Assembly (NCBI GenBank): GCA_012729505.1
Contig: JAAYDA010000019.1
Coordinates: 234 to 64,233, forward strand
DNA: 64,000 nucleotides
Source: Syntrophomonadaceae bacterium
GTDB taxonomy: Bacteria; Bacillota; Syntrophomonadia; Syntrophomonadales; DTU052
Direction of reading: 5' to 3'
Shown here piece after piece: positions 191-50,986 of the stretch (its first letter is position 1; each line of letters begins with the position of its first letter). The notes beneath the pieces are model-generated. The model saw only the letters and a program-made list of their open reading frames with translations. It was not told the origin of the DNA and searched no databases. A program made the translations under genes and the position numbers.

Positions 191-519
191 TACCAGCACA
201 AATTAGTATATTATGCTCGAAAGGAGGGGAGTTCCTTGAACTATCCTTGGAAAAGACTTAAAATAAAAGCAGTTATTTATAGGGATATAAAGCTACAAGC
301 AGGCGGAGCTTGCTGAGGAGTTTAGCAGCCTGATAACAGGGCTGCCGCCTTGACGGGTATAACCATCAAGGGTGGGCCGTTTGACACGGCCTGAAGGGGG
401 AGCAAACGACATTGGGCAGAAATGTACCGACCGATGCGGACCCCAACCATCCTGGTAATCAGGAATCCCCTGGATTTCCCCATGGGGAGGATGTCAATCG
501 AGAAAGGAGGCTGTTAGGC

Positions 520-702
520 TTGAAGCGGGATTTGAAAACTAATCCAAAAGTAAATATCATATATGCTAAAAAAGAGCAGCCGTCCATTGAAGCTAACGAA
601 AAGCTTCCAGAAGGAATAACAGAATCTTTTAAGGAAGTCGTATTGATGAGGCAGGGTAAAATTCCTAAAAAGACTTGGTGGGAGGTTAGGGATGAAATAT
701 GA
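520..702 (+). CDS. putative small antitoxin partner of the downstream RelE/ParE-type toxin (60 aa, TTG start)
   Basis: RBS AAAGGAGG at 503-510 lies 9 nt before an in-frame TTG at 520. The stop overlaps the toxin start by 11 nt. The C-terminus (SFKEVVLMRQGKIPKK) resembles small antitoxin tails as I recall them. Confidence 0.45.
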   Translation: MKRDLKTNPKVNIIYAKKEQPSIEANEKLPEGITESFKEVVLMRQGKIPKKTWWEVRDEI

Positions 703-994
703 GGTCATACCAACCTCGTACTTTCTAAGAAGATTGAAACAACTTAAAGAGCGCGGCGTAGAGCGAGGAGTAGATTCCCTCGCTCTCGGTTTGCAGGAAG
801 GTATTTTTCCTGGAGTTATCATAAAGGGCACCAAAGGTAAGGTTCGCAAGACTCGCATTGAAGCTGCTGGTCAAGGGAAAAGGGGTGGCTTTCGGGTGAT
901 CTATTATCTCTGCATTGAGGAAAACAAAGAAATCTACCTAATAGACGTATACGGCAAAAATGAGAAAGAAACCATAACCCCAGCTGAGATTTAA
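692..994 (+). CDS. RelE/ParE-superfamily type II toxin
   Basis: 100 aa. The GGFRVIYY...IYLIDVYGKNEKE signature is typical of RelE/ParE-like addiction-module toxins. It is translationally coupled to the upstream small ORF. Confidence 0.7.
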   Translation: MKYEVIPTSYFLRRLKQLKERGVERGVDSLALGLQEGIFPGVIIKGTKGKVRKTRIEAAGQGKRGGFRVIYYLCIEENKEIYLIDVYGKNEKETITPAEI

Positions 995-1030
995 CAGCTT
1001 CTAAAACAACAAGAATTGCCCCTATGGTGA

Positions 1031-1066
1031 GCCAAAAGCCCCTTGTTTAAACAAGAGGCTTTTGGC
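1031..1066 (+). terminator. stem-loop downstream of the RelE-like gene
   Basis: GCCAAAAGCC...GGCTTTTGGC forms a 10-bp stem around the palindromic CTTGTTTAAACAAG. It lies about 35 nt after the stop at 994. Confidence 0.5.
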
Positions 1067-1117
1067 GTTAGTAGTTGTAGGAATTATTTCTCTGTGCTTA
1101 AAGCCTAAAAAGAAAGA

Positions 1118-1245
1118 AGACTGCCTTTGTGTAAGGCGGTCTAGTCCCGATGTAGGACCTACCGCCCCGCAAAAAACGGCAACCCCTTTATTAGTTGTAT
1201 GATATCATCTAAAAAATAATACGTCAACGTACCAAAAGGCGGGCT
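1118..1245 (-). ncRNA. copy A of a promoter-bearing ~125-nt repeat (candidate small RNA), leftward orientation
   Basis: On the minus strand: TTGACG (plus 1222-1227), a 17-nt spacer, then TATCAT (plus 1199-1204). An AAGGGGTTGCCG...GGCGG hairpin follows, then a terminal hairpin AGACTGCC..GGCGGTCT at 1118-1142. It aligns along its whole length with copies at 5000-5131 and 5805-5931. Confidence 0.4.
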
Positions 1246-1367
1246 CCTAACACTCAGATCAATAGCTGGGGCTAAAATATTTCACATATGTCCTCAGTCT
1301 TGAGTCACGAATAATCCAGTCTCTCTTGCGCATACTATGTACATAGTGTACGCTAGGAGGTGGAGGG

Positions 1368-1784
1368 ATGTTTATGCAGGACATAATGAGTGCAACAGAG
1401 GTTCGAAAAGAATGGAGCACCTGGGTTGACAGAGTGGTTAGAGAGAAGCCTTTGGTGGTAAAGCGCACCCACGATTACTTTGTAGGAATATCTATTGAGC
1501 ACCTGAAAAAACTACTTGAACCCTACAAATTTGAAATAGAAATTGACGCAGAGAAAAGCGGTGCTTTTGTGGCGTCGTTAAAAGGCTTTGACTTGGTGGT
1601 ATCCGGGCAAAATAAAGATGAGGTGCGCAAAGCTATGGCGCATGAGTTGTTGGAATACGCCCAAGATTATTTTGCGGAATTTGATCTTTATTATAAGGCT
1701 CCCAACCGGCAGGAACACTTTCCGTATTTACTTAAGGTGTTGTTATTGAATGATACTCGGGAGCTTGAAAGACTAATTGCCTAG
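1368..1784 (+). CDS. antitoxin-like protein (Phd/YefM-like N-terminus, HicB/UPF0150-like middle region)
   Basis: RBS AGGAGGTGGAGGG precedes the ATG. The N-terminus SATEVRKEWSTWVDRV..KPLVVKR resembles Phd/YefM antitoxins. No cognate toxin follows because the truncated IS66 abuts the stop. Confidence 0.4.
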   Translation: MFMQDIMSATEVRKEWSTWVDRVVREKPLVVKRTHDYFVGISIEHLKKLLEPYKFEIEIDAEKSGAFVASLKGFDLVVSGQNKDEVRKAMAHELLEYAQDYFAEFDLYYKAPNRQEHFPYLLKVLLLNDTRELERLIA

Positions 1785-2062
1785 ATGCGCCGATAGGTGA
1801 TAGTCTCCGTCTGGGGTTCTTCTGTATGGGGATTGGCGCTCTCTTCAGCCTCGTTGAAAAGGTTAAGCTGTTCGGGCGAAGACTTCTCACTGGAAGAACC
1901 AAAGCGCTTCTGATTTATTAGGCGCAACTGTTCCTCATACCATTTGAGGCGGGAATTAAGCTCGGCGTTCTGCTGTTCCAATGTTAAAATATGTTGATCT
2001 TTTTGAAGCAAAACAGTTTGAAGTTGTTCAACAAGAGCAGCAGAATTTTCATGCTTATCCAT
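1781..2062 (-). pseudogene. IS66 transposase (TnpC) N-terminal fragment
   Basis: LEQQNAELNSRLKWYEEQLRLINQKRFGSSSEK..QLNLFNEAE is the leucine-zipper N-terminus of IS66 TnpC. Only 93 of roughly 500 aa are present. Confidence 0.8.
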
Positions 2063-41609: not shown

Positions 41610-41815
41610 ATTCCCTCCATTACCCTCACCCCTCACCCCTCACCCCTCACTCCTCTCGCCTCACCCCTCCCGCAGTAACACGTAGTTAGTTCCACTTGCT
41701 CCCGGAAAGAGATTAAGGAATTAAGGAAGTTCGACGCTCCACGTCGAACCAAGCGAGGAGCACAAATCTCTTAACAAGATTTGGCTCCCGCCTGCCTCAC
41801 CCCTCCGCCTCACTT
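41610..41815 (+). repeat. mosaic structured repeat: C-rich tract + inverted M2 fragment + M1 double hairpin + C-rich tract
   Basis: M1 is GGAATTAAGGAAGTTCGACGCTCCACGTCGAACCAAGCGAGGAGCACAAATCTCTTAACAAGATTTGGCTCCCGCCTG (41717-41794). Related copies lie at 47294, 55848(-), 58503(-) and 63525. Confidence 0.85.
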
Positions 41816-41827
41816 TTCCATGTGCTC

Positions 41828-41930
41828 CTCCTGTGCCTGTTATGTACACTAAAAAAAATTAATAAAAAATTAACATGTGATTCTCTTGTATCTATCCTTG
41901 CAATTCCCCTATGTGATAGTAGGTTATGGT
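41828..41930 (+). promoter_or_regulatory. conserved ~105-nt upstream element (copy 1) with three ATGTRMW direct repeats spaced 33 and 36 nt
   Basis: It aligns with 49201-49305. The repeats are ATGTACA at 41842, ATGTGAT at 41875 and ATGTGAT at 41911. TTGCAA lies between the last two. Confidence 0.4.
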
Positions 41931-43532: not shown

Positions 43533-44189
43533 ATGAAAAGGAAGATACTGTTTGGATTTCTGTTAATTAGCCTTCAGAGTTTTATGGTAGGAGGCGGCAC
43601 CATGGCTTACTTTACATCCGATGCCACTCTCGCTTCCACTGCTTTTAATTTCAGTACAGTGGACATAAAAATCGTAGAACCCGCTGCTCCCCAGTGTGGC
43701 GGCGGTGGCGGCCAGCAGAGCGCCGCATGGGAAATCACAAATGTCGGAGATCAGGATGTTCAGCTTCGGGTGAAGGTAACAGGGAGATTTGAAAATAATG
43801 AACTCAATACGATGGATACGGAAGAGATAGTTAATCTTACTGGTGAAGCCGACCTCATGAAAGGACCAGGAGGACCAGGAGGACCAGGAGGACCAGGAGG
43901 ACCAGGAGGACCAGGAGGTCCAGGAGGTCCAGGAGGTCCGGGAGGGCCAGGAGGGCCAGGTGGTTCATCCGAGCCTCCCACAGTTGATCTGGTGCCTTGT
44001 AATGGCTGGTATTTAGAAAACGGGTACTATTATTACGATGGTATATTACCCATGGGTGACTCGGTTCCCTTTAGTCTCACATTGAATAAAAGCGGAGGCA
44101 GCACAGGCACCTACAACTATAATCTTGATATCGAAGCCCAAGCCTTGCAGACCGTTAATGAGCCCCAGTGGACAGACGTCAGCTTTTAA
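43533..44189 (+). CDS. TasA/camelysin-like secreted protein with internal (GPG)n linker
   Basis: It has a SipW-type signal ([12 protein letters not shown]). It contains the run GPGGPGGPG... (ten GPG units). The C-terminal [12 protein letters not shown] is like the TasA-family end motif. Confidence 0.65.
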
Positions 44190-44309: not shown

Positions 44310-44396
44310 ACAGATAAAGGCAAACCTGCCGAAAGACAGGGACGCAAAGCTATAGGGCCTTTCTGAAAGCAGAATGGCAGCCTGGCCGCCGATAAT
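44310..44396 (+). promoter_or_regulatory. c-di-GMP-I (GEMM-I) riboswitch
   Basis: AAAGGCAAACCTGCCGAAAGACAGGGACGCAAAGCTATAGGGCC....GGCAGCCTGGCCGCCGATAA matches the GGCAAA..GAAAG..GGACGCAAAGCC..GGGTTRCCGA core. It ends about 30 nt before the 44427 start. Confidence 0.8.
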
Positions 44397-45819: not shown

Positions 45820-46575
45820 ATGTTGAGGAGAAACCTAAAAATTATACTGGCCGTATTGTTGGCTTCCTTCCTTATGGCCGGGTCAGCCTTGGGAGCCACC
45901 GGATCCGGGTACAAGATAGTGGGGGAAAGCAACGGATTAGTCATTAGCGCCCCTGACGATCCGGAAAAAACCGATAACCTGAATCCCGGGGACATTAAAA
46001 ACTCACGGCTGGTGCTGAAGAACGAGGGATCTAACACACTGACCGTTTCCATGCGGACGGAGATCACCTGTGAGAACACCATACGCGGCGGTCAACTGGC
46101 CGACATTATGAAGCTGATCATCAAGGACGGCACCCGAGTCATTACCGATGAAACCTTCCGTCAGGCCCATGGCCGGGGGAACTTCGTAATTGGCAGCATG
46201 GCCCCGGGCGATGAAAAGACTCTGTACTTCAACGCGGATCTGCCCGGCGCAGCCGCCAACAACGATTACCAAGGCGCTAAAATGTGTGTTATATGGGTAT
46301 TCACCACTACCAGCAGCTCCACCGGAGGAGGCGGCGGCGGAGGTGGCGGCGGAGGCGGCGGCGGCGGTTTTGTTCCCGATGAGCCGGTCGTTACTCCTGG
46401 GGAACCGGATGTGGTCACCCCCGGTGAAATCCCAACCCCTGATGAAGAAATCATCGTACCGGATGAGGAAACTCCGCAAATGCCCAAAACCGGCGTAGGC
46501 AGCCCTCTGCCCTTTTACGCCCTGGGTGCCTTTGTACTCACCGGCGGAGTCTTCATTCTGAAGAAAAAACAATAA
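45820..46575 (+). CDS. sortase-anchored surface protein with TasA-like N-terminal domain, poly-Gly linker and MPKTG sorting signal
   Basis: It has a Sec signal, then NLNPGDIKNSRLVLKNEG and NDYQGAKMCVIWVF. A G14 run follows, then PQMPKTG, a hydrophobic helix and KKKQ. Confidence 0.75.
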   Translation: MLRRNLKIILAVLLASFLMAGSALGATGSGYKIVGESNGLVISAPDDPEKTDNLNPGDIKNSRLVLKNEGSNTLTVSMRTEITCENTIRGGQLADIMKLIIKDGTRVITDETFRQAHGRGNFVIGSMAPGDEKTLYFNADLPGAAANNDYQGAKMCVIWVFTTTSSSTGGGGGGGGGGGGGGGFVPDEPVVTPGEPDVVTPGEIPTPDEEIIVPDEETPQMPKTGVGSPLPFYALGAFVLTGGVFILKKKQ

Positions 46576-46644: not shown

Positions 46645-47235
46645 ATGCAACGAAAAATAGCGGCGGTACTTTTAATTCTCATCGGTCTGGCTATAGTAAG
46701 CTATCCCCTGGCCCGGGACGCCTACTTTGAATACCAGCAGAGAAAGCTGGCGGAGCTATGGCAGGCCGACCTCCAGCAGATCGACGGCGATGCTGCCATT
46801 GAATATACTATGGCCCAACCGGCCATCGATCTCACCAAAGAAATGGAAGGCCTTTTGATCATAGATAAGATCAAACTGACCGCCCCTATTCTTACGGGGA
46901 TCACCAACCGGAATCTTAATCTCTCCGTAGCCAGTGTGGAAAAAACAGGCCGCCCCGGCGAACCGGGCAACTACTGCATCGCCGGTCACCGCAGCCGTTC
47001 TTACGGTTTATTGTTCAACCGGCTGAACGAATTGGCCGTCGGGGATGATATTGTAGTCCAGACTGAGGATCAGACTTTTGTTTACCAGGTCACTGCCAGC
47101 AAGGTCGTAAAACCGGAAAATGTTGAGCTTCTGAAGCCTGACGGGGACCGAAAGCTCATCACCCTGATAACCTGCGATTACAGCGTAAAAAAACCCTATC
47201 TCCGCCTGATCGTCACGGGGGAATTGGAAGAGTGA
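46645..47235 (+). CDS. sortase-family transpeptidase
   Basis: It has an N-terminal TM, IAGHRS (catalytic His), TLITC (catalytic Cys) and LRLIV (Arg). Confidence 0.85.
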   Translation: MQRKIAAVLLILIGLAIVSYPLARDAYFEYQQRKLAELWQADLQQIDGDAAIEYTMAQPAIDLTKEMEGLLIIDKIKLTAPILTGITNRNLNLSVASVEKTGRPGEPGNYCIAGHRSRSYGLLFNRLNELAVGDDIVVQTEDQTFVYQVTASKVVKPENVELLKPDGDRKLITLITCDYSVKKPYLRLIVTGELEE

Positions 47236-47455
47236 GCATTAGTGAGGCGTAAGGAGTAAGGCGTAAGGCGTTAGGTGTTAGGAGAGATGGGGTAATTAAG
47301 GAAGTTCGACGCTCCACGTCGAACCAAGCGAGGAGCACAAATCTCTTAACAAGATTTGGCTCCCGCCTGAACGCTCCACGTCGAACCAAGCGAGGAGCAC
47401 AAATCTCTTAGCAAGATTTGGCTCCCGCCTGCCTTACCCCTCTCTCCTCACCCCT
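47236..47455 (+). repeat. mosaic structured repeat: G-rich tract + M1 with internal partial duplication + C-rich tract
   Basis: GTGAGGCGTAAGGAGTAAGGCGTAAGGCGTTAGG.. is followed by M1 at 47294-47368. A second copy lacking the first ~16 nt lies at 47369-47433, followed by CCTTACCCCTCTCTCCTCACCCCTCA. The two arms are inverse-complementary in composition. Confidence 0.85.
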
Positions 47456-47457
47456 CA

Positions 47458-48462
47458 TCAACTTCTCATTGTCCGGTTAAACATGACCTGAGCATAGTTC
47501 TCGATGTCATTCGGGGTTAACATATTATATTTCTGTCTTACCGCGCTAAAATACTCTCCAATATCCTCCTTAGCAATTATGCGATTAGAATGGGCGTCAG
47601 ACGGCAGATAGCCGCGGGTTTTGATCCAAGGCATCTCCGAATGCGTAAATCGCTCCAGTATTTTTCCGCTGTAACAGCACAAATGCTGAATCACACTATC
47701 AATAACCGCTTTCTCGGCATCGGTAAAAACAGAAACATCAAACTCTCCGTTGCTTTCAATCTGATCAAAACGGTAATTCGAATAGCGGTTATAAATTTCT
47801 CGATAAACCGGCCCATGCACCCACGCTTCGCAATCATCAACAAATAAGAAAACCTTCATAAAAGCGAAGTAGAAGCCCTGAATATAATACAGCGCCTTTT
47901 GCAACGCCAGAGGAGTGATGTCTTCGCACTGGAACAATAAGTACCCAATAACCGCATCCACTTTAGATGCTTTGTTTATGGGCCGGCCCAGAAATTCTGC
48001 CGTCTGGCGTTTGCTCTTTTCATAGGCTATTTGAGATCTGAGGTTGCCTTTGTTTTCTTCGAGGAATGAAAGGTAAAAAGCCGGATCCCCGTAAATTTTT
48101 TGTAGCATATCAGAATATTGCTTTGTTGGCATATCGCCATCGCAATAGCGGGTAAACGTCATTTCTCCCCAGCCTAAAAGCAGTGACAGCGGCCGTTTGC
48201 CAATGTTATATTTTCGCGGAATCTCTAAGATTTTTTCCAGCGAAATAATGCCGTTTTTTTGACGATAAGCATCATAAAGCGCCTTAAGGTTGCCGTCCTC
48301 GATTTCAGCCGCATAGACTTCGGTGCCGCATTCAGTGCATACAGCTTTATTTCCGGTATAACTATATTCCTCACCTTTCAACGAGCCTTTTAGCGGAACT
48401 CTTTCACAATAATAGGCCACATCTGTTCTGCATTCCTCGCAGAATGTCATTTTCTCATTCAT
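47458..48462 (-). CDS. antitoxin: MqsA-like zinc-ribbon + HTH fused to a DUF4065 (Panacea/SocA-like) domain
   Basis: RBS AAGGAGGAGG precedes the start. The zinc ribbon is CEEC..(34 aa)..CTEC. The HTH-like segment is ISLEKILEIPRKYNIGKRPLSLLLGWGEMTFTRY. The C-terminal LQKALYYIQGFYFAF...WVHGPV resembles DUF4065. Confidence 0.65.
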   Translation of the reverse strand: MNEKMTFCEECRTDVAYYCERVPLKGSLKGEEYSYTGNKAVCTECGTEVYAAEIEDGNLKALYDAYRQKNGIISLEKILEIPRKYNIGKRPLSLLLGWGEMTFTRYCDGDMPTKQYSDMLQKIYGDPAFYLSFLEENKGNLRSQIAYEKSKRQTAEFLGRPINKASKVDAVIGYLLFQCEDITPLALQKALYYIQGFYFAFMKVFLFVDDCEAWVHGPVYREIYNRYSNYRFDQIESNGEFDVSVFTDAEKAVIDSVIQHLCCYSGKILERFTHSEMPWIKTRGYLPSDAHSNRIIAKEDIGEYFSAVRQKYNMLTPNDIENYAQVMFNRTMRS

Positions 48463-48489
48463 AAAGCCTCCTCCTTTCAATTCCAACCC

Positions 48490-48900
48490 TTACTTAAAAC
48501 AGTAATCGATCGGCTTGTTACGCTTATGGAATGATATGACCACCACACGCTTTCCTTCACTGATGCCTATTATGTTAAATTTGGTATAAACATCTACCAT
48601 TTCTTCGTTGCCTTCAAAATTGAATAACATGATCTGTGAACAAAACACATATAAGACTTCATATTCATATCCCAAATTAGTATTTTGTAACGTATGGCAG
48701 AAATCTTCAGGCGCAATTTGTAAAAGAATTTCTTTCTGCTTTTCGCTGGTGAGGTTATACTCGTTTATAAAGTCTACATTTTCCTGTCTATTCTCGTTTT
48801 TAGAAATATAAAAACGGCTCTCTCTTACACAATCCTGTATTGTCTGCAAAGTCAGCACTATTTGCTCTCGTGTATAGTTCTGATCGTAATGCGGATTCAT
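48490..48900 (-). CDS. putative MqsR-like toxin (start uncertain; 48918 is the alternative)
   Basis: It lies directly upstream of the MqsA-like gene with a 27-nt gap. ..EDFCHTLQN....VDVYTKF......VVVISFHKRN parallels MqsR ..DFYKSMT...QDVYRP....LIVSFKEK. The track's N-terminal extension runs into repeat sequence. Confidence 0.45.
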   Translation of the reverse strand: MNPHYDQNYTREQIVLTLQTIQDCVRESRFYISKNENRQENVDFINEYNLTSEKQKEILLQIAPEDFCHTLQNTNLGYEYEVLYVFCSQIMLFNFEGNEEMVDVYTKFNIIGISEGKRVVVISFHKRNKPIDYCFK

Positions 48901-49107
48901 TGCACCACCCCGCACCATCTCTTTGTAATGCAATAATACTATATTATATGCCTTCCGTAAAGTTTTATGCACTAATTGGTTCAGTATAGCTAAGTCATTG
49001 ATCTCTTTTAAAGTTTTCAGACGCTGATTGGAATGTGAGGCGATGATGTGGCACGTGATTAGTTCCAATGCGGCGACTCCCCTCACTTCCCCATCCGCGT
49101 AAATCAT

Positions 49108-49200
49108 AATAATCTGCGTTCATCTGCGTTTTCGTTTCCCCGTTCCCCGTCCCTCGTCTTCCCGTATCTCCTCCCGCCTCACTCCTTTCTCATCGCAACA
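49108..49200. repeat. mosaic repeat fragment (ATCTGCGT units + C-rich tract)
   Basis: AATCTGCGTTCATCTGCGTTTTCGTTTCCCCGTTCCCCGTCCCTCGTC..CCTCCCGCCTCACTCCTTTCTC shares modules with 50571-50690 and 63230-63290. Confidence 0.75.
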
Positions 49201-49305
49201 CTCCCGTGTGCCTGTCATGTACACTAAAAGAGATTCATAAAAAATGTCCGTGTAATTCTCTTATATCTCCCCATGCAATTCCCTTATGTAATAGTAGGTT
49301 ATAGT
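49201..49305 (+). promoter_or_regulatory. conserved ~105-nt upstream element (copy 2)
   Basis: It aligns with 41828-41930. ATGTACA at 49217, GTGTAAT at 49250 and ATGTAAT at 49286 have the same 33/36-nt spacing. Confidence 0.4.
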
Positions 49306-50510: not shown

Positions 50511-50570
50511 CCTCCAAACCTGAAATCTAATAACAACAAGGGATGGGTAATCGGCCCATCCCTTATTACG

Positions 50571-50690
50571 TCCCCCCATTCTCCTCCTTCTCACCCCTCA
50601 CGGTCCCCATCTGCGTAAATCTGCGTTAATCTGCGTCTTCGTTCACCCTTTCGCCTTTCGCCTTTCGCCTCACTCCTAACTCCCTCTTGC
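50571..50690. repeat. mosaic repeat fragment (C-rich tract + ATCTGCGT units + TTCGCC units)
   Basis: ..CTCACCCCTCACGGTCCCCATCTGCGTAAATCTGCGTTAATCTGCGTCTTCGTTCACCCTTTCGCCTTTCGCCTTTCGCCTCACTCC.. is the reverse complement of modules at 63230-63290. Confidence 0.8.
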
Positions 50691-50730
50691 ATAATTATTT
50701 TTTTCTGCTAAAATTAGATATAAGTAAAGT

Positions 50731-50812
50731 TGATAAAGGCAAATTCGTCGAAAGGCGGAGACGCAAAGCCACGGGCCTAAGACCGGAAGGTTATGGTCGC
50801 CGGGTTGCCGAT
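50731..50812 (+). promoter_or_regulatory. c-di-GMP-I (GEMM-I) riboswitch, first of a tandem pair
   Basis: AAAGGCAAATTCGTCGAAAGGCGGAGACGCAAAGCCACGGGCCTAAGACC..GGTCGCCGGGTTGCCGATAA aligns closely with the Vc2 aptamer sequence as I recall it. Confidence 0.9.
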
Positions 50813-50869: not shown

Positions 50870-50904
50870 ATCCGACTCTTTGCGTAAAAAGCGAATAGCA
50901 AAAC

Positions 50905-50986
50905 CGATAATGGCAAATCCGTCGAAAGGCGGAGACGCAAAGCCACGGGCCTAAGACCGAAAGGTTATGGTCGCCGGGTTGCCGAA
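50905..50986 (+). promoter_or_regulatory. c-di-GMP-I (GEMM-I) riboswitch, second of the tandem pair
   Basis: AATGGCAAATCCGTCGAAAGGCGGAGACGCAAAGCCACGGGCCTAAGACC..GGTCGCCGGGTTGCCGAAG is nearly identical to the first aptamer. Confidence 0.9.

Follow-up and report, generated by a model that had tools for sequence, protein, structure and literature searches.

The question raised by this locus is what kind of system is encoded by two adjacent minus-strand genes that lie, in a segment of low GC content, among the fibre genes of a Syntrophomonadaceae bacterium (GCA_012729505.1, contig JAAYDA010000019.1). We refer to the whole 64,000-nucleotide stretch of this contig that was analysed (positions 234 to 64,233) as the window. 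From the letters alone, the original prediction had described an MqsR-like toxin and an MqsA-type zinc-ribbon/helix-turn-helix (HTH) antitoxin fused to a Panacea (DUF4065) domain. We find that the cassette is very probably a horizontally acquired, self-contained type II toxin–antitoxin (TA) operon of the MqsR:PanA kind, consisting of a PanT group T2 toxin and a PanA antitoxin with a zinc-binding domain (ZBD), an HTH and a Panacea domain. It is an intact, ordinary member of the catalogued MqsR-like PanT group T2 family, and the main value of the analysis lies in the correct annotation of a toxin that escapes Pfam even though its family is very widespread.

Gene pair and boundaries

The toxin gene lies upstream of the antitoxin gene, both open reading frames (ORFs) are full length, and the operon extends over ~1.5 kb of the minus strand (47458 to about 48983). 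The coding features, in window positions and with the evidence for each in brackets, are as follows.

48490–48900, minus strand: toxin gene, 136 aa, MNPHYD...YCFK (ORF list and homologue lengths)
48467–48477, minus strand: antitoxin Shine-Dalgarno (SD) sequence AAAGGAGGAGG, strong and near-perfect, inside the intergenic gap (sequence)
47458–48462, minus strand: antitoxin gene, 334 aa, MNEKMTFCEEC... (ORF list, family scans and homologues)
48313–48462, minus strand: ZBD of the antitoxin, aa 1–50, with C8/C11/C42/C45 (Foldseek and invariant Cys)
48055–48309, minus strand: long helix and XRE-type HTH of the antitoxin, aa 52–136 (TIGR03830 and Foldseek match 3fmy)
47461–47964, minus strand: Panacea (DUF4065/SocA-like) domain of the antitoxin, aa 167–334, with the Pfam core at aa 187–279, 47626–47904 (PF13274)

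The ORF list gives longer minus-strand frames for both genes: 205 aa (48490–49107) and 342 aa (47458–48486). We place the toxin start at the ATG at 48900, and not at 49107 as first proposed, because the family is almost uniformly 136 aa. The toxin homologues form 1,363 clusters, mostly of 136 aa, and 68 of the 80 best loci from a scan of a genome collection for toxin relatives encode a protein of this length as well. The conserved promoter and leader occupy 48901–48983, upstream of the corrected start. Once both starts are corrected, the toxin stop (48490) and the antitoxin ATG (48462) are separated by 27 nt, and the gap and toxin-first order claimed in the original prediction are both present. 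The motifs that it had listed are also found, namely CEEC...CTEC, LQKALYYIQGF and WVHGPV in the antitoxin and EDFCHTL, VDVYTKF and VVISFHK in the toxin, and the cassette is AT-rich as described: Its GC content is 40.8% (toxin gene 34.8%, antitoxin gene 43.1%), compared with 47.1% for the window and 51.6% for the neighbouring sortase gene.

Homology of the toxin to MqsR

An exhaustive search with the toxin returned 408 cluster representatives at E ≤ 0.001, and the window toxin was aligned with 74 diverse full-length homologues (alignment A1). F86 and K107 are invariant in this alignment, and at least 90% of its members share R38, N41, D66, F67, Y105, S123, and H125; the window toxin keeps every invariant and nearly invariant residue of the family. 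When each member of A1 was scanned against Pfam, 29 out of 75 matched MqsR_toxin (PF15723) at E ≤ 1, with a best E of 3.5e-6, and no other family recurred.

Among 300 genomes of the phylum scanned with PF15723, genome G019 encodes a bona fide MqsR (76.6 bits). Aligned to this protein with hhalign, A1 gives a probability of 96.5% (E = 9.2e-10, 102 columns), with the motifs LYVF/LWVF, YIKF/YIKI, and ISFH/VSFH in register. The corresponding alignment to Escherichia coli MqsR, taken from NC_000913.3, covers 86 of its 98 residues (E = 4.9e-5). Profile comparison thus upholds the MqsR-like toxin that had been proposed from the sequence. Four residues are known as toxicity residues of E. coli MqsR: K56, Q68, Y81, and K96 (PMC2791442). 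Of these, Y81 corresponds to Y105 of the window toxin, and K96 and K56 correspond to H125 and H69, respectively; Q68 lies where the alignment is gapped.

The AlphaFold2 model of the toxin (predicted local distance difference test score [pLDDT] 83.4) has the order b1-a1-b2-a2-a3-b3-b4-b5-b6, plus a short C-terminal helix. Its six strands and three main helices equal the number of elements reported for MqsR, and their order is consistent with MqsR. The evidence supports placing the toxin in the MqsR family (PanT group T2) as a long, divergent member, and it is a putative mRNA endoribonuclease by analogy with that family. Database entries mostly label it a hypothetical protein, and a few carry other names.

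A three-domain antitoxin of the MqsA type

The antitoxin is a three-domain PanA of the MqsA type. With a score of 68.3 bits (cut-off 25.7, E = 1.4e-18), the Panacea model PF13274 (SocA_Panacea) agrees with the DUF4065 domain predicted at the C terminus, and a scan of the whole genome with this model gave a single copy (70.2 bits). A linker separates the HTH from the Panacea domain. The match to TIGR03830 (CxxCG_CxxCG_HTH) spans residues 16–136 of the 342-aa translation, equivalent to residues 8–128 of the 334-aa protein.

The AlphaFold2 model of the antitoxin, built from 31 homologues, has a pLDDT of 88.5. Foldseek places full-length E. coli MqsA first among its PDB matches (3gn5, probability 1.00). 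3hi2_A, the MqsA N-domain in its complex with MqsR, matches the zinc domain (probability 0.96), and 3fmy, the MqsA C-domain, matches the HTH (TMt 0.69, root mean square deviation 2.6 Å). C8, C11, C42, and C45 are invariant among the 31 sequences of alignment A3 and correspond to Cys3/6/37/40, the four-Cys zinc site of the MqsA N-domain (PMC2791442). The invariant cysteines and the best Foldseek matches, which are all to E. coli MqsA, confirm the MqsA-type N terminus of the original prediction. The ZBD would be the toxin-neutralizing element and the HTH domain the DNA-binding, dimerizing part of an autorepressor.

Conservation and distribution of the pair

Relatives of the toxin occur in 199 species-representative genome stretches of the collection, mostly from Bacillota, and there are 2,525 full-length antitoxin homologues. 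In 69 of the 80 best loci, a 330- to 343-aa CxxC protein is encoded downstream of the toxin, at a distance of −4 to 32 nt. Exactly the same layout (136 aa, 27 nt, 334 aa) is seen in one genome (G032) and, in unrelated genomic contexts, at loci L025 and L027, and another genome (G033) has a 136-aa toxin with an antitoxin ORF downstream; the 27-nt spacing is shared by L004, L025, and L027. Kurata 2022 required of PanA loci a two-gene organization that is conserved in several species, with at most 100 nt to the partner (PMC8832971), and the present family has its partner within this distance in several species.

The cassette is single-copy in its source genome. A search of 10 genomes from its own family did not find it, and close homologues are present in two out of 23 genomes of the sister family. 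At L025 the pair is on a contig with a MobL/relaxase and a type IV secretion system coupling protein (a conjugative element), and at L027 it adjoins an IS91 transposase and an integrase. Phage protein families match both proteins (phrog_34059 and phrog_10390).

G019 also holds a second, more canonical MqsR:PanA lineage within the same order. There (L028, G019:C1:2755566-2758832, positions 443–1827, minus strand), a 115-aa MqsR ORF, the one that scores 76.6 bits, lies directly upstream of a 336-aa ZBD-HTH-Panacea antitoxin, and the toxin ends in VSFH, not SFK. Toxin genes 64%–93% identical to that of the window are found on contigs of 2–36 kb in bins labelled Bacteroidota (L043, L045, and L089; Dyadobacter, Porphyromonadaceae, and Bacteroidaceae). 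These copies reflect either recent transfer or binning contamination, the latter being more likely for the short contigs.

Regulatory DNA upstream of the toxin

A stretch of about 90 nt that precedes the toxin ATG is conserved among loci whose further flanks are unrelated. Downstream, conservation between loci ends exactly at the stop codon of the antitoxin. Three features were found in the upstream segment.

48933–48961, minus strand: sigma-70-like promoter TTTACG-17-TATTAT (consensus scan and conservation in unrelated contexts)
48968–48983, minus strand: 16-bp dyad TGAACCAATTAGTGCA, candidate operator of an HTH dimer (fixed position and conservation)
48897–48936, minus strand: leader hairpin of 12 bp, in which 48925–48936 pairs with 48897–48908 (RNAalifold on five loci)

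The promoter of the relatives reads TTGAC(A/G)-17-TATCAT. Upstream of the −35 element, the dyad is present in 63 out of 63 loci in the form TG(C/T)A-yy-AATT-rr-T(G/A)CA, with TGCAyyAATTrrTGCA as the family consensus; its distance to the toxin ATG is 71–75 nt in the relatives and 83 nt in the window. In the window copy, six of the eight pairs are self-complementary, and the left arm reads TGAAC where the family has TGCAC. Scoring of maximal palindromes failed to separate real from shuffled AT-rich upstream regions. The case for the dyad rests on its fixed position and sequence conservation, which did separate real from shuffled, and these make it an obvious candidate operator for the HTH dimer.

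The 3′ arm of the hairpin holds both the SD-like GGTGA of the toxin and its AUG. RNAalifold returned no structure when given all 63 leaders, and the hairpin was then tested as a named structure. Pairing holds in 86.6% of cells over 59 distinct sequences and in 26%–56% when the partner arm is slid, a control that somewhat favours the hairpin because the structure was derived from the same sequences. Six pairs change on both sides, and none of 500 shuffles reached the observed pairing or the observed covariation. Pairing is retained in the window, where one G-C substitution keeps the pair.

The loop of the window hairpin (48909–48924) carries a 10-nt insertion relative to the 62 other loci, which resembles a local GGTGC duplication. 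The loop is larger as a result, and an additional ATG arises upstream in frame (MVRGGAM...).

The table of Kurata 2022 contains no description of a promoter dyad or a leader hairpin of the kind seen in the window family. The family-wide dyad and the hairpin that would sequester the toxin SD and AUG are modest additions to the known description of this family, and they are cheap to test.

Comparison with known systems

The MqsR-PanA architecture has already been catalogued (2022) and experimentally dissected (2023). Kurata 2022 predicted 1,313 Panacea TA-like loci, with MqsR-like as the most frequent recognizable PanT domain (n = 90) and HTH regions in 343 PanAs; that work notes that the pairing of MqsR with DUF4065 was seen as early as 2013, and it found that PanAT pairs are of type II, forming complexes and not needing proteases (PMC8832971). 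The original prediction had called the fusion of two antitoxin modules in one protein unusual. With the numbers of antitoxin homologues and of genomes with toxin relatives given above, this is a published and common architecture.

Four toxins in Dataset S1 of Kurata 2022 are 69%–74% identical to the window toxin: WP_091348512.1, WP_094550188.1, WP_045411523.1, and WP_133626862.1. All four are assigned there to group T2, with an HTH-PanA as partner, the order T|A, and the mark 'notest', and other PanT T2 members hit the 'MqsR superfamily' (PMC8832971). The predicted T2/HTH-PanA pairs, such as that of Anaerobranca gottschalkii (WP_091348512.1 with WP_091348515.1), belong to the same family as the window pair; further hosts are Petroclostridium xylanilyticum, Thermoanaerobacterium saccharolyticum, and Fonticella tunisiensis. 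Like the window toxin, the listed T2 toxins are 136 aa long, stand in T|A order at a short intergenic distance, and are followed by a PanA with an N-terminal HTH region.

A pair with the ZBD-HTH-Panacea architecture, MqsR:PanA of Bacillus fungorum, has been validated (Ernits 2023, PNAS; PMC10440598). Its MqsR is neutralized by the ZBD or by ZBD-HTH of PanA, and not by Panacea or HTH-Panacea, and the authors propose that Panacea acts as a sensor where a dedicated neutralizing domain is present (PMC10440598). The window pair shares with B. fungorum MqsR(D2):PanA the toxin-first operon, the MqsR-family toxin, the ZBD and HTH with a C-terminal Panacea domain, and a Firmicute host, and the catalytic Tyr Y97 of B. 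fungorum (PMC10440598) corresponds to the conserved Y105 of the window toxin. The two toxins differ in that the window toxin is not recognized directly by PF15723.

The E. coli MqsR/MqsA pair (3HI2, 3GN5, and 3FMY; Brown et al. 2009, PMC2791442) is likewise toxin-first; its toxin is RelE-like and has in common with the window toxin the DF..., VY.K, and SF(K/H) motifs. As proposed for the window antitoxin, the four-Cys zinc N-domain of MqsA binds the toxin, and its C-terminal HTH binds palindromes in its own promoter (PMC2791442). However, MqsA has 131 aa and lacks the Panacea domain. At 136 aa, the window toxin exceeds E. coli MqsR (98 aa) by about 38 aa and differs from it in the conserved N-terminal R38/N41 motif and in having His where E. 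coli MqsR has K56 and K96. The operator sequences of the two operons also differ. Caulobacter SocA, of the type VI system SocA/SocB, shares the Panacea/DUF4065 domain with the window antitoxin. However, SocB is an inhibitor of the replication clamp and not an RNase, SocA is a ClpXP adaptor without a ZBD-HTH, and neither activity is indicated for the window pair.

Proposed mechanism

The sequence analysis itself shows the gene structure, which domains are present, the homology to MqsR and MqsA, the conservation of both the pair and its regulatory DNA, and the foreign character of the cassette within this locus. By analogy with E. coli MqsRA and B. fungorum MqsR:PanA, the literature from which we take toxicity, RNase activity, neutralization by the ZBD, and autoregulation, the operon would work as follows. 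One promoter, preceded by the 16-bp dyad as its operator, would give a bicistronic mRNA. The first cistron would encode a 136-aa endoribonuclease of the MqsR family with a RelE fold, which would cleave mRNA and so arrest translation. With its SD and AUG held in the conserved leader hairpin, the toxin would be translated weakly; together with the near-perfect SD of the second cistron, this would yield an excess of antitoxin from a toxin-first operon. The four-Cys zinc ribbon at the N terminus of the antitoxin would bind and neutralize the toxin, and its HTH would dimerize and, bound to the dyad, repress the promoter. Panacea, at the C terminus, would be accessory, a proposed sensor and not a neutralizer.

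A speculative extension of this scheme, which we hold to be rather unlikely as a whole, would combine a previously undescribed two-layer throttle on the toxin, formed by the dyad operator and the SD/AUG hairpin, with a Panacea domain that senses a trigger and so makes the cassette an abortive-infection device, and with an RNase mechanism or specificity that differs from that of E. coli MqsR through His at the K56 and K96 positions together with R38/N41.

Points against and alternative explanations

Several results weigh against the MqsR:PanA assignment or against normal function of this copy. The window toxin itself has no meaningful direct match to PF15723 or any other Pfam family (up to E = 10), nor to NCBIfam or PADLOC models. 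Searches of PDB sequences with the toxin (phmmer, and hmmsearch with the family profile) did not find MqsR. MqsR is also absent from the top 50 Foldseek matches of the toxin model in the PDB, the best being weak NTF2-like folds (E of about 0.01); the fold is supported only by sequence profiles and the order of secondary-structure elements. In BFVD, the top Foldseek match was a phage protein of 124 aa with an uninformative name (E = 3.6e-6). For the antitoxin, the MqsA models score narrowly below their curated cut-offs (PF15731, 26.2 against 30; TIGR03830, 58.9 against 61.8), and we therefore speak of an MqsA-like module and not of a member by curated threshold. Among tested relatives, MqsR:PanA of Herbaspirillum frisingense was toxic in E. 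coli but not neutralized (PMC8832971). Finally, the window copy has a weaker −35 element (TTTACG), the mismatch in the dyad arm, and the 10-nt leader insertion, and its expression may differ from that of its relatives.

An alternative that we regard as possible, if less than likely, keeps the same molecules but makes abortive-infection phage defence their main role, with Panacea sensing a phage cue and releasing or activating the RNase, instead of plain addiction or stabilization. The sensory role that the B. fungorum authors favour for Panacea beside a dedicated neutralizing domain (PMC10440598) agrees with this, as do the occurrence of the family on conjugative elements and in the two phage protein families and its patchy distribution. 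Yet no PADLOC-DB model matches either protein, no trigger is known, and none of the genes of the locus (fibre and sortase genes) is related to defence. A defence role is moreover compatible with the molecular mechanism of an MqsR:PanA operon as set out above, and not exclusive of it.

That the window copy has been silenced or is decaying, a remnant that persists only because it is harmless, seems to us quite improbable. The weakened −35, the mismatch in the left dyad arm, and the leader insertion, which all set it apart from the 62 other loci, are what a remnant might show. But both ORFs are full length, the invariant and nearly invariant residues of A1 are kept, the hairpin still pairs, with the pair kept at its one G-C substitution, and the ribosome-binding site of the antitoxin is intact.

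We consider it very improbable that the upstream gene encodes another nuclease of the BECR fold ('PBECR3') or a non-toxic partner, so that the pair would not be a classical MqsRA-like TA system. A few relatives carry the NCBI name 'PBECR3 domain-containing protein', the rank-3 match in BFVD is a polyvalent-protein-associated domain, and the missing direct match to PF15723 and the PDB Foldseek result would fit this reading. Neither the window protein nor P0083, however, is matched by a PBECR model of Pfam when E values up to 10 are allowed, the profile-profile and transitive matches consistently indicate MqsR, and published clustering places the family in T2 beside members of the CDD 'MqsR superfamily'. 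As a better name for the toxin, 'PBECR3' was rejected: It is a label on few NCBI entries that Pfam does not reproduce.

A type VI system like SocAB, in which Panacea would be a proteolytic adaptor delivering the toxin to ClpXP rather than inhibiting it by binding, can be set aside almost entirely: The Panacea domain is shared with SocA, and the NCBIfam SocA_antitoxin equivalog does match the antitoxin weakly (39.5 bits against a cut-off of 190), but PanAT pairs proved to be of type II and independent of proteases (PMC8832971), the partner is MqsR-like and not SocB-like, and there is a complete MqsA-type ZBD, which is the neutralizer in the tested B. fungorum homologue (PMC10440598).

Locus, repeats, and acquisition

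The MqsR:PanA cassette is flanked by sequence that encodes a fibre locus, with the following features.

43503, 44427, and 49377: SipW-type/TasA-camelysin fibre proteins (family scans)
45820: LPXTG-like protein (family scans)
46645–47235: sortase (family scans)
51094: transglutaminase-like protein (family scans)
44310–44394, 50728–50812, and 50902–50986: cyclic di-GMP (c-di-GMP)-I riboswitches
47236–47457: left flank, outside the mobile module, with short GGCGTAAGG-type repeats and two tandem copies of a 62-nt repetitive extragenic palindrome (REP)-like hairpin repeat, 47309–47431 (repeat search)
49069–49217: right flank, with C-rich mosaic repeats that are also found at 50595–50683; blocks at 49089–49191 recur at 50558–50682 (repeat search)

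No sortase orthologue was found among 40 related genomes, where the best match is 34% identical. A metagenome scan yielded eight sortase-related loci, none of which contains a TA match. At L035, the sortase (61% identical) is followed by two c-di-GMP riboswitches (2418–2516 and 2638–2736) and a transglutaminase orthologue (53% identical); at L041, the sortase (46% identical) is followed by one riboswitch (1095–1178) and a transglutaminase. Both loci lack the TA cassette and also the paralogous fibre gene. With a sortase that leads straight to the riboswitch or riboswitches and transglutaminase, these uninterrupted loci bear out the insertion within the fibre locus that had been predicted.

The closest locus (L034, sortase 86% identical) ends 181 nt past the sortase gene. 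The 62-nt repeats are passed over in its tail, which from ~20 nt after the sortase stop resembles 49069–49217 of the window, as expected of an empty site. The tail aligns equally well to 49069–49217 alone and to the joined flanks and also matches 50595–50683. Because this sequence is repetitive, L034 is only suggestive as an empty site.

Repeats do bracket the cassette, as the original prediction had stated, but they are not specific to its ends: The repeat block of the left flank has 53 matches genome-wide, on many contigs. We rejected the flanking repeats as terminal repeats of the cassette, as they belong to a genome-wide family and the sequence conserved with other loci extends from ~90 nt before the toxin ATG to the antitoxin stop codon and no further. 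Because they are dispersed throughout the genome, we regard them as a recombination-prone background and not as cassette ends. The low GC content, the single copy, the patchy distribution, and the cassette-free loci L035 and L041 indicate that the cassette was acquired horizontally into a repeat-rich spot of the fibre locus. It marks a recombination-prone, repeat-rich site in a fibre locus under c-di-GMP control.

Several further observations concern the same surroundings. REP-like and mosaic repeats flank several low-GC cassettes without being specific to them. At 41708–41930, upstream of the fibre locus, a copy of the left-flank repeat (47283–47369) and a copy of the stretch that precedes the paralogous fibre gene (49207–49305) stand side by side, 38 nt apart, which shows reshuffling of intergenic modules within the genome. 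One of the riboswitches precedes a TasA-like fibre gene, and the tandem pair precedes the transglutaminase-like gene. The genes of the fibre locus also contain coding microsatellites: a 9-nt AGGACCAGG array at 43862–43960 that encodes (GPG)n, and a GGN run at 46323–46368 that codes for a poly-Gly linker in front of the LPXTG-like anchor.

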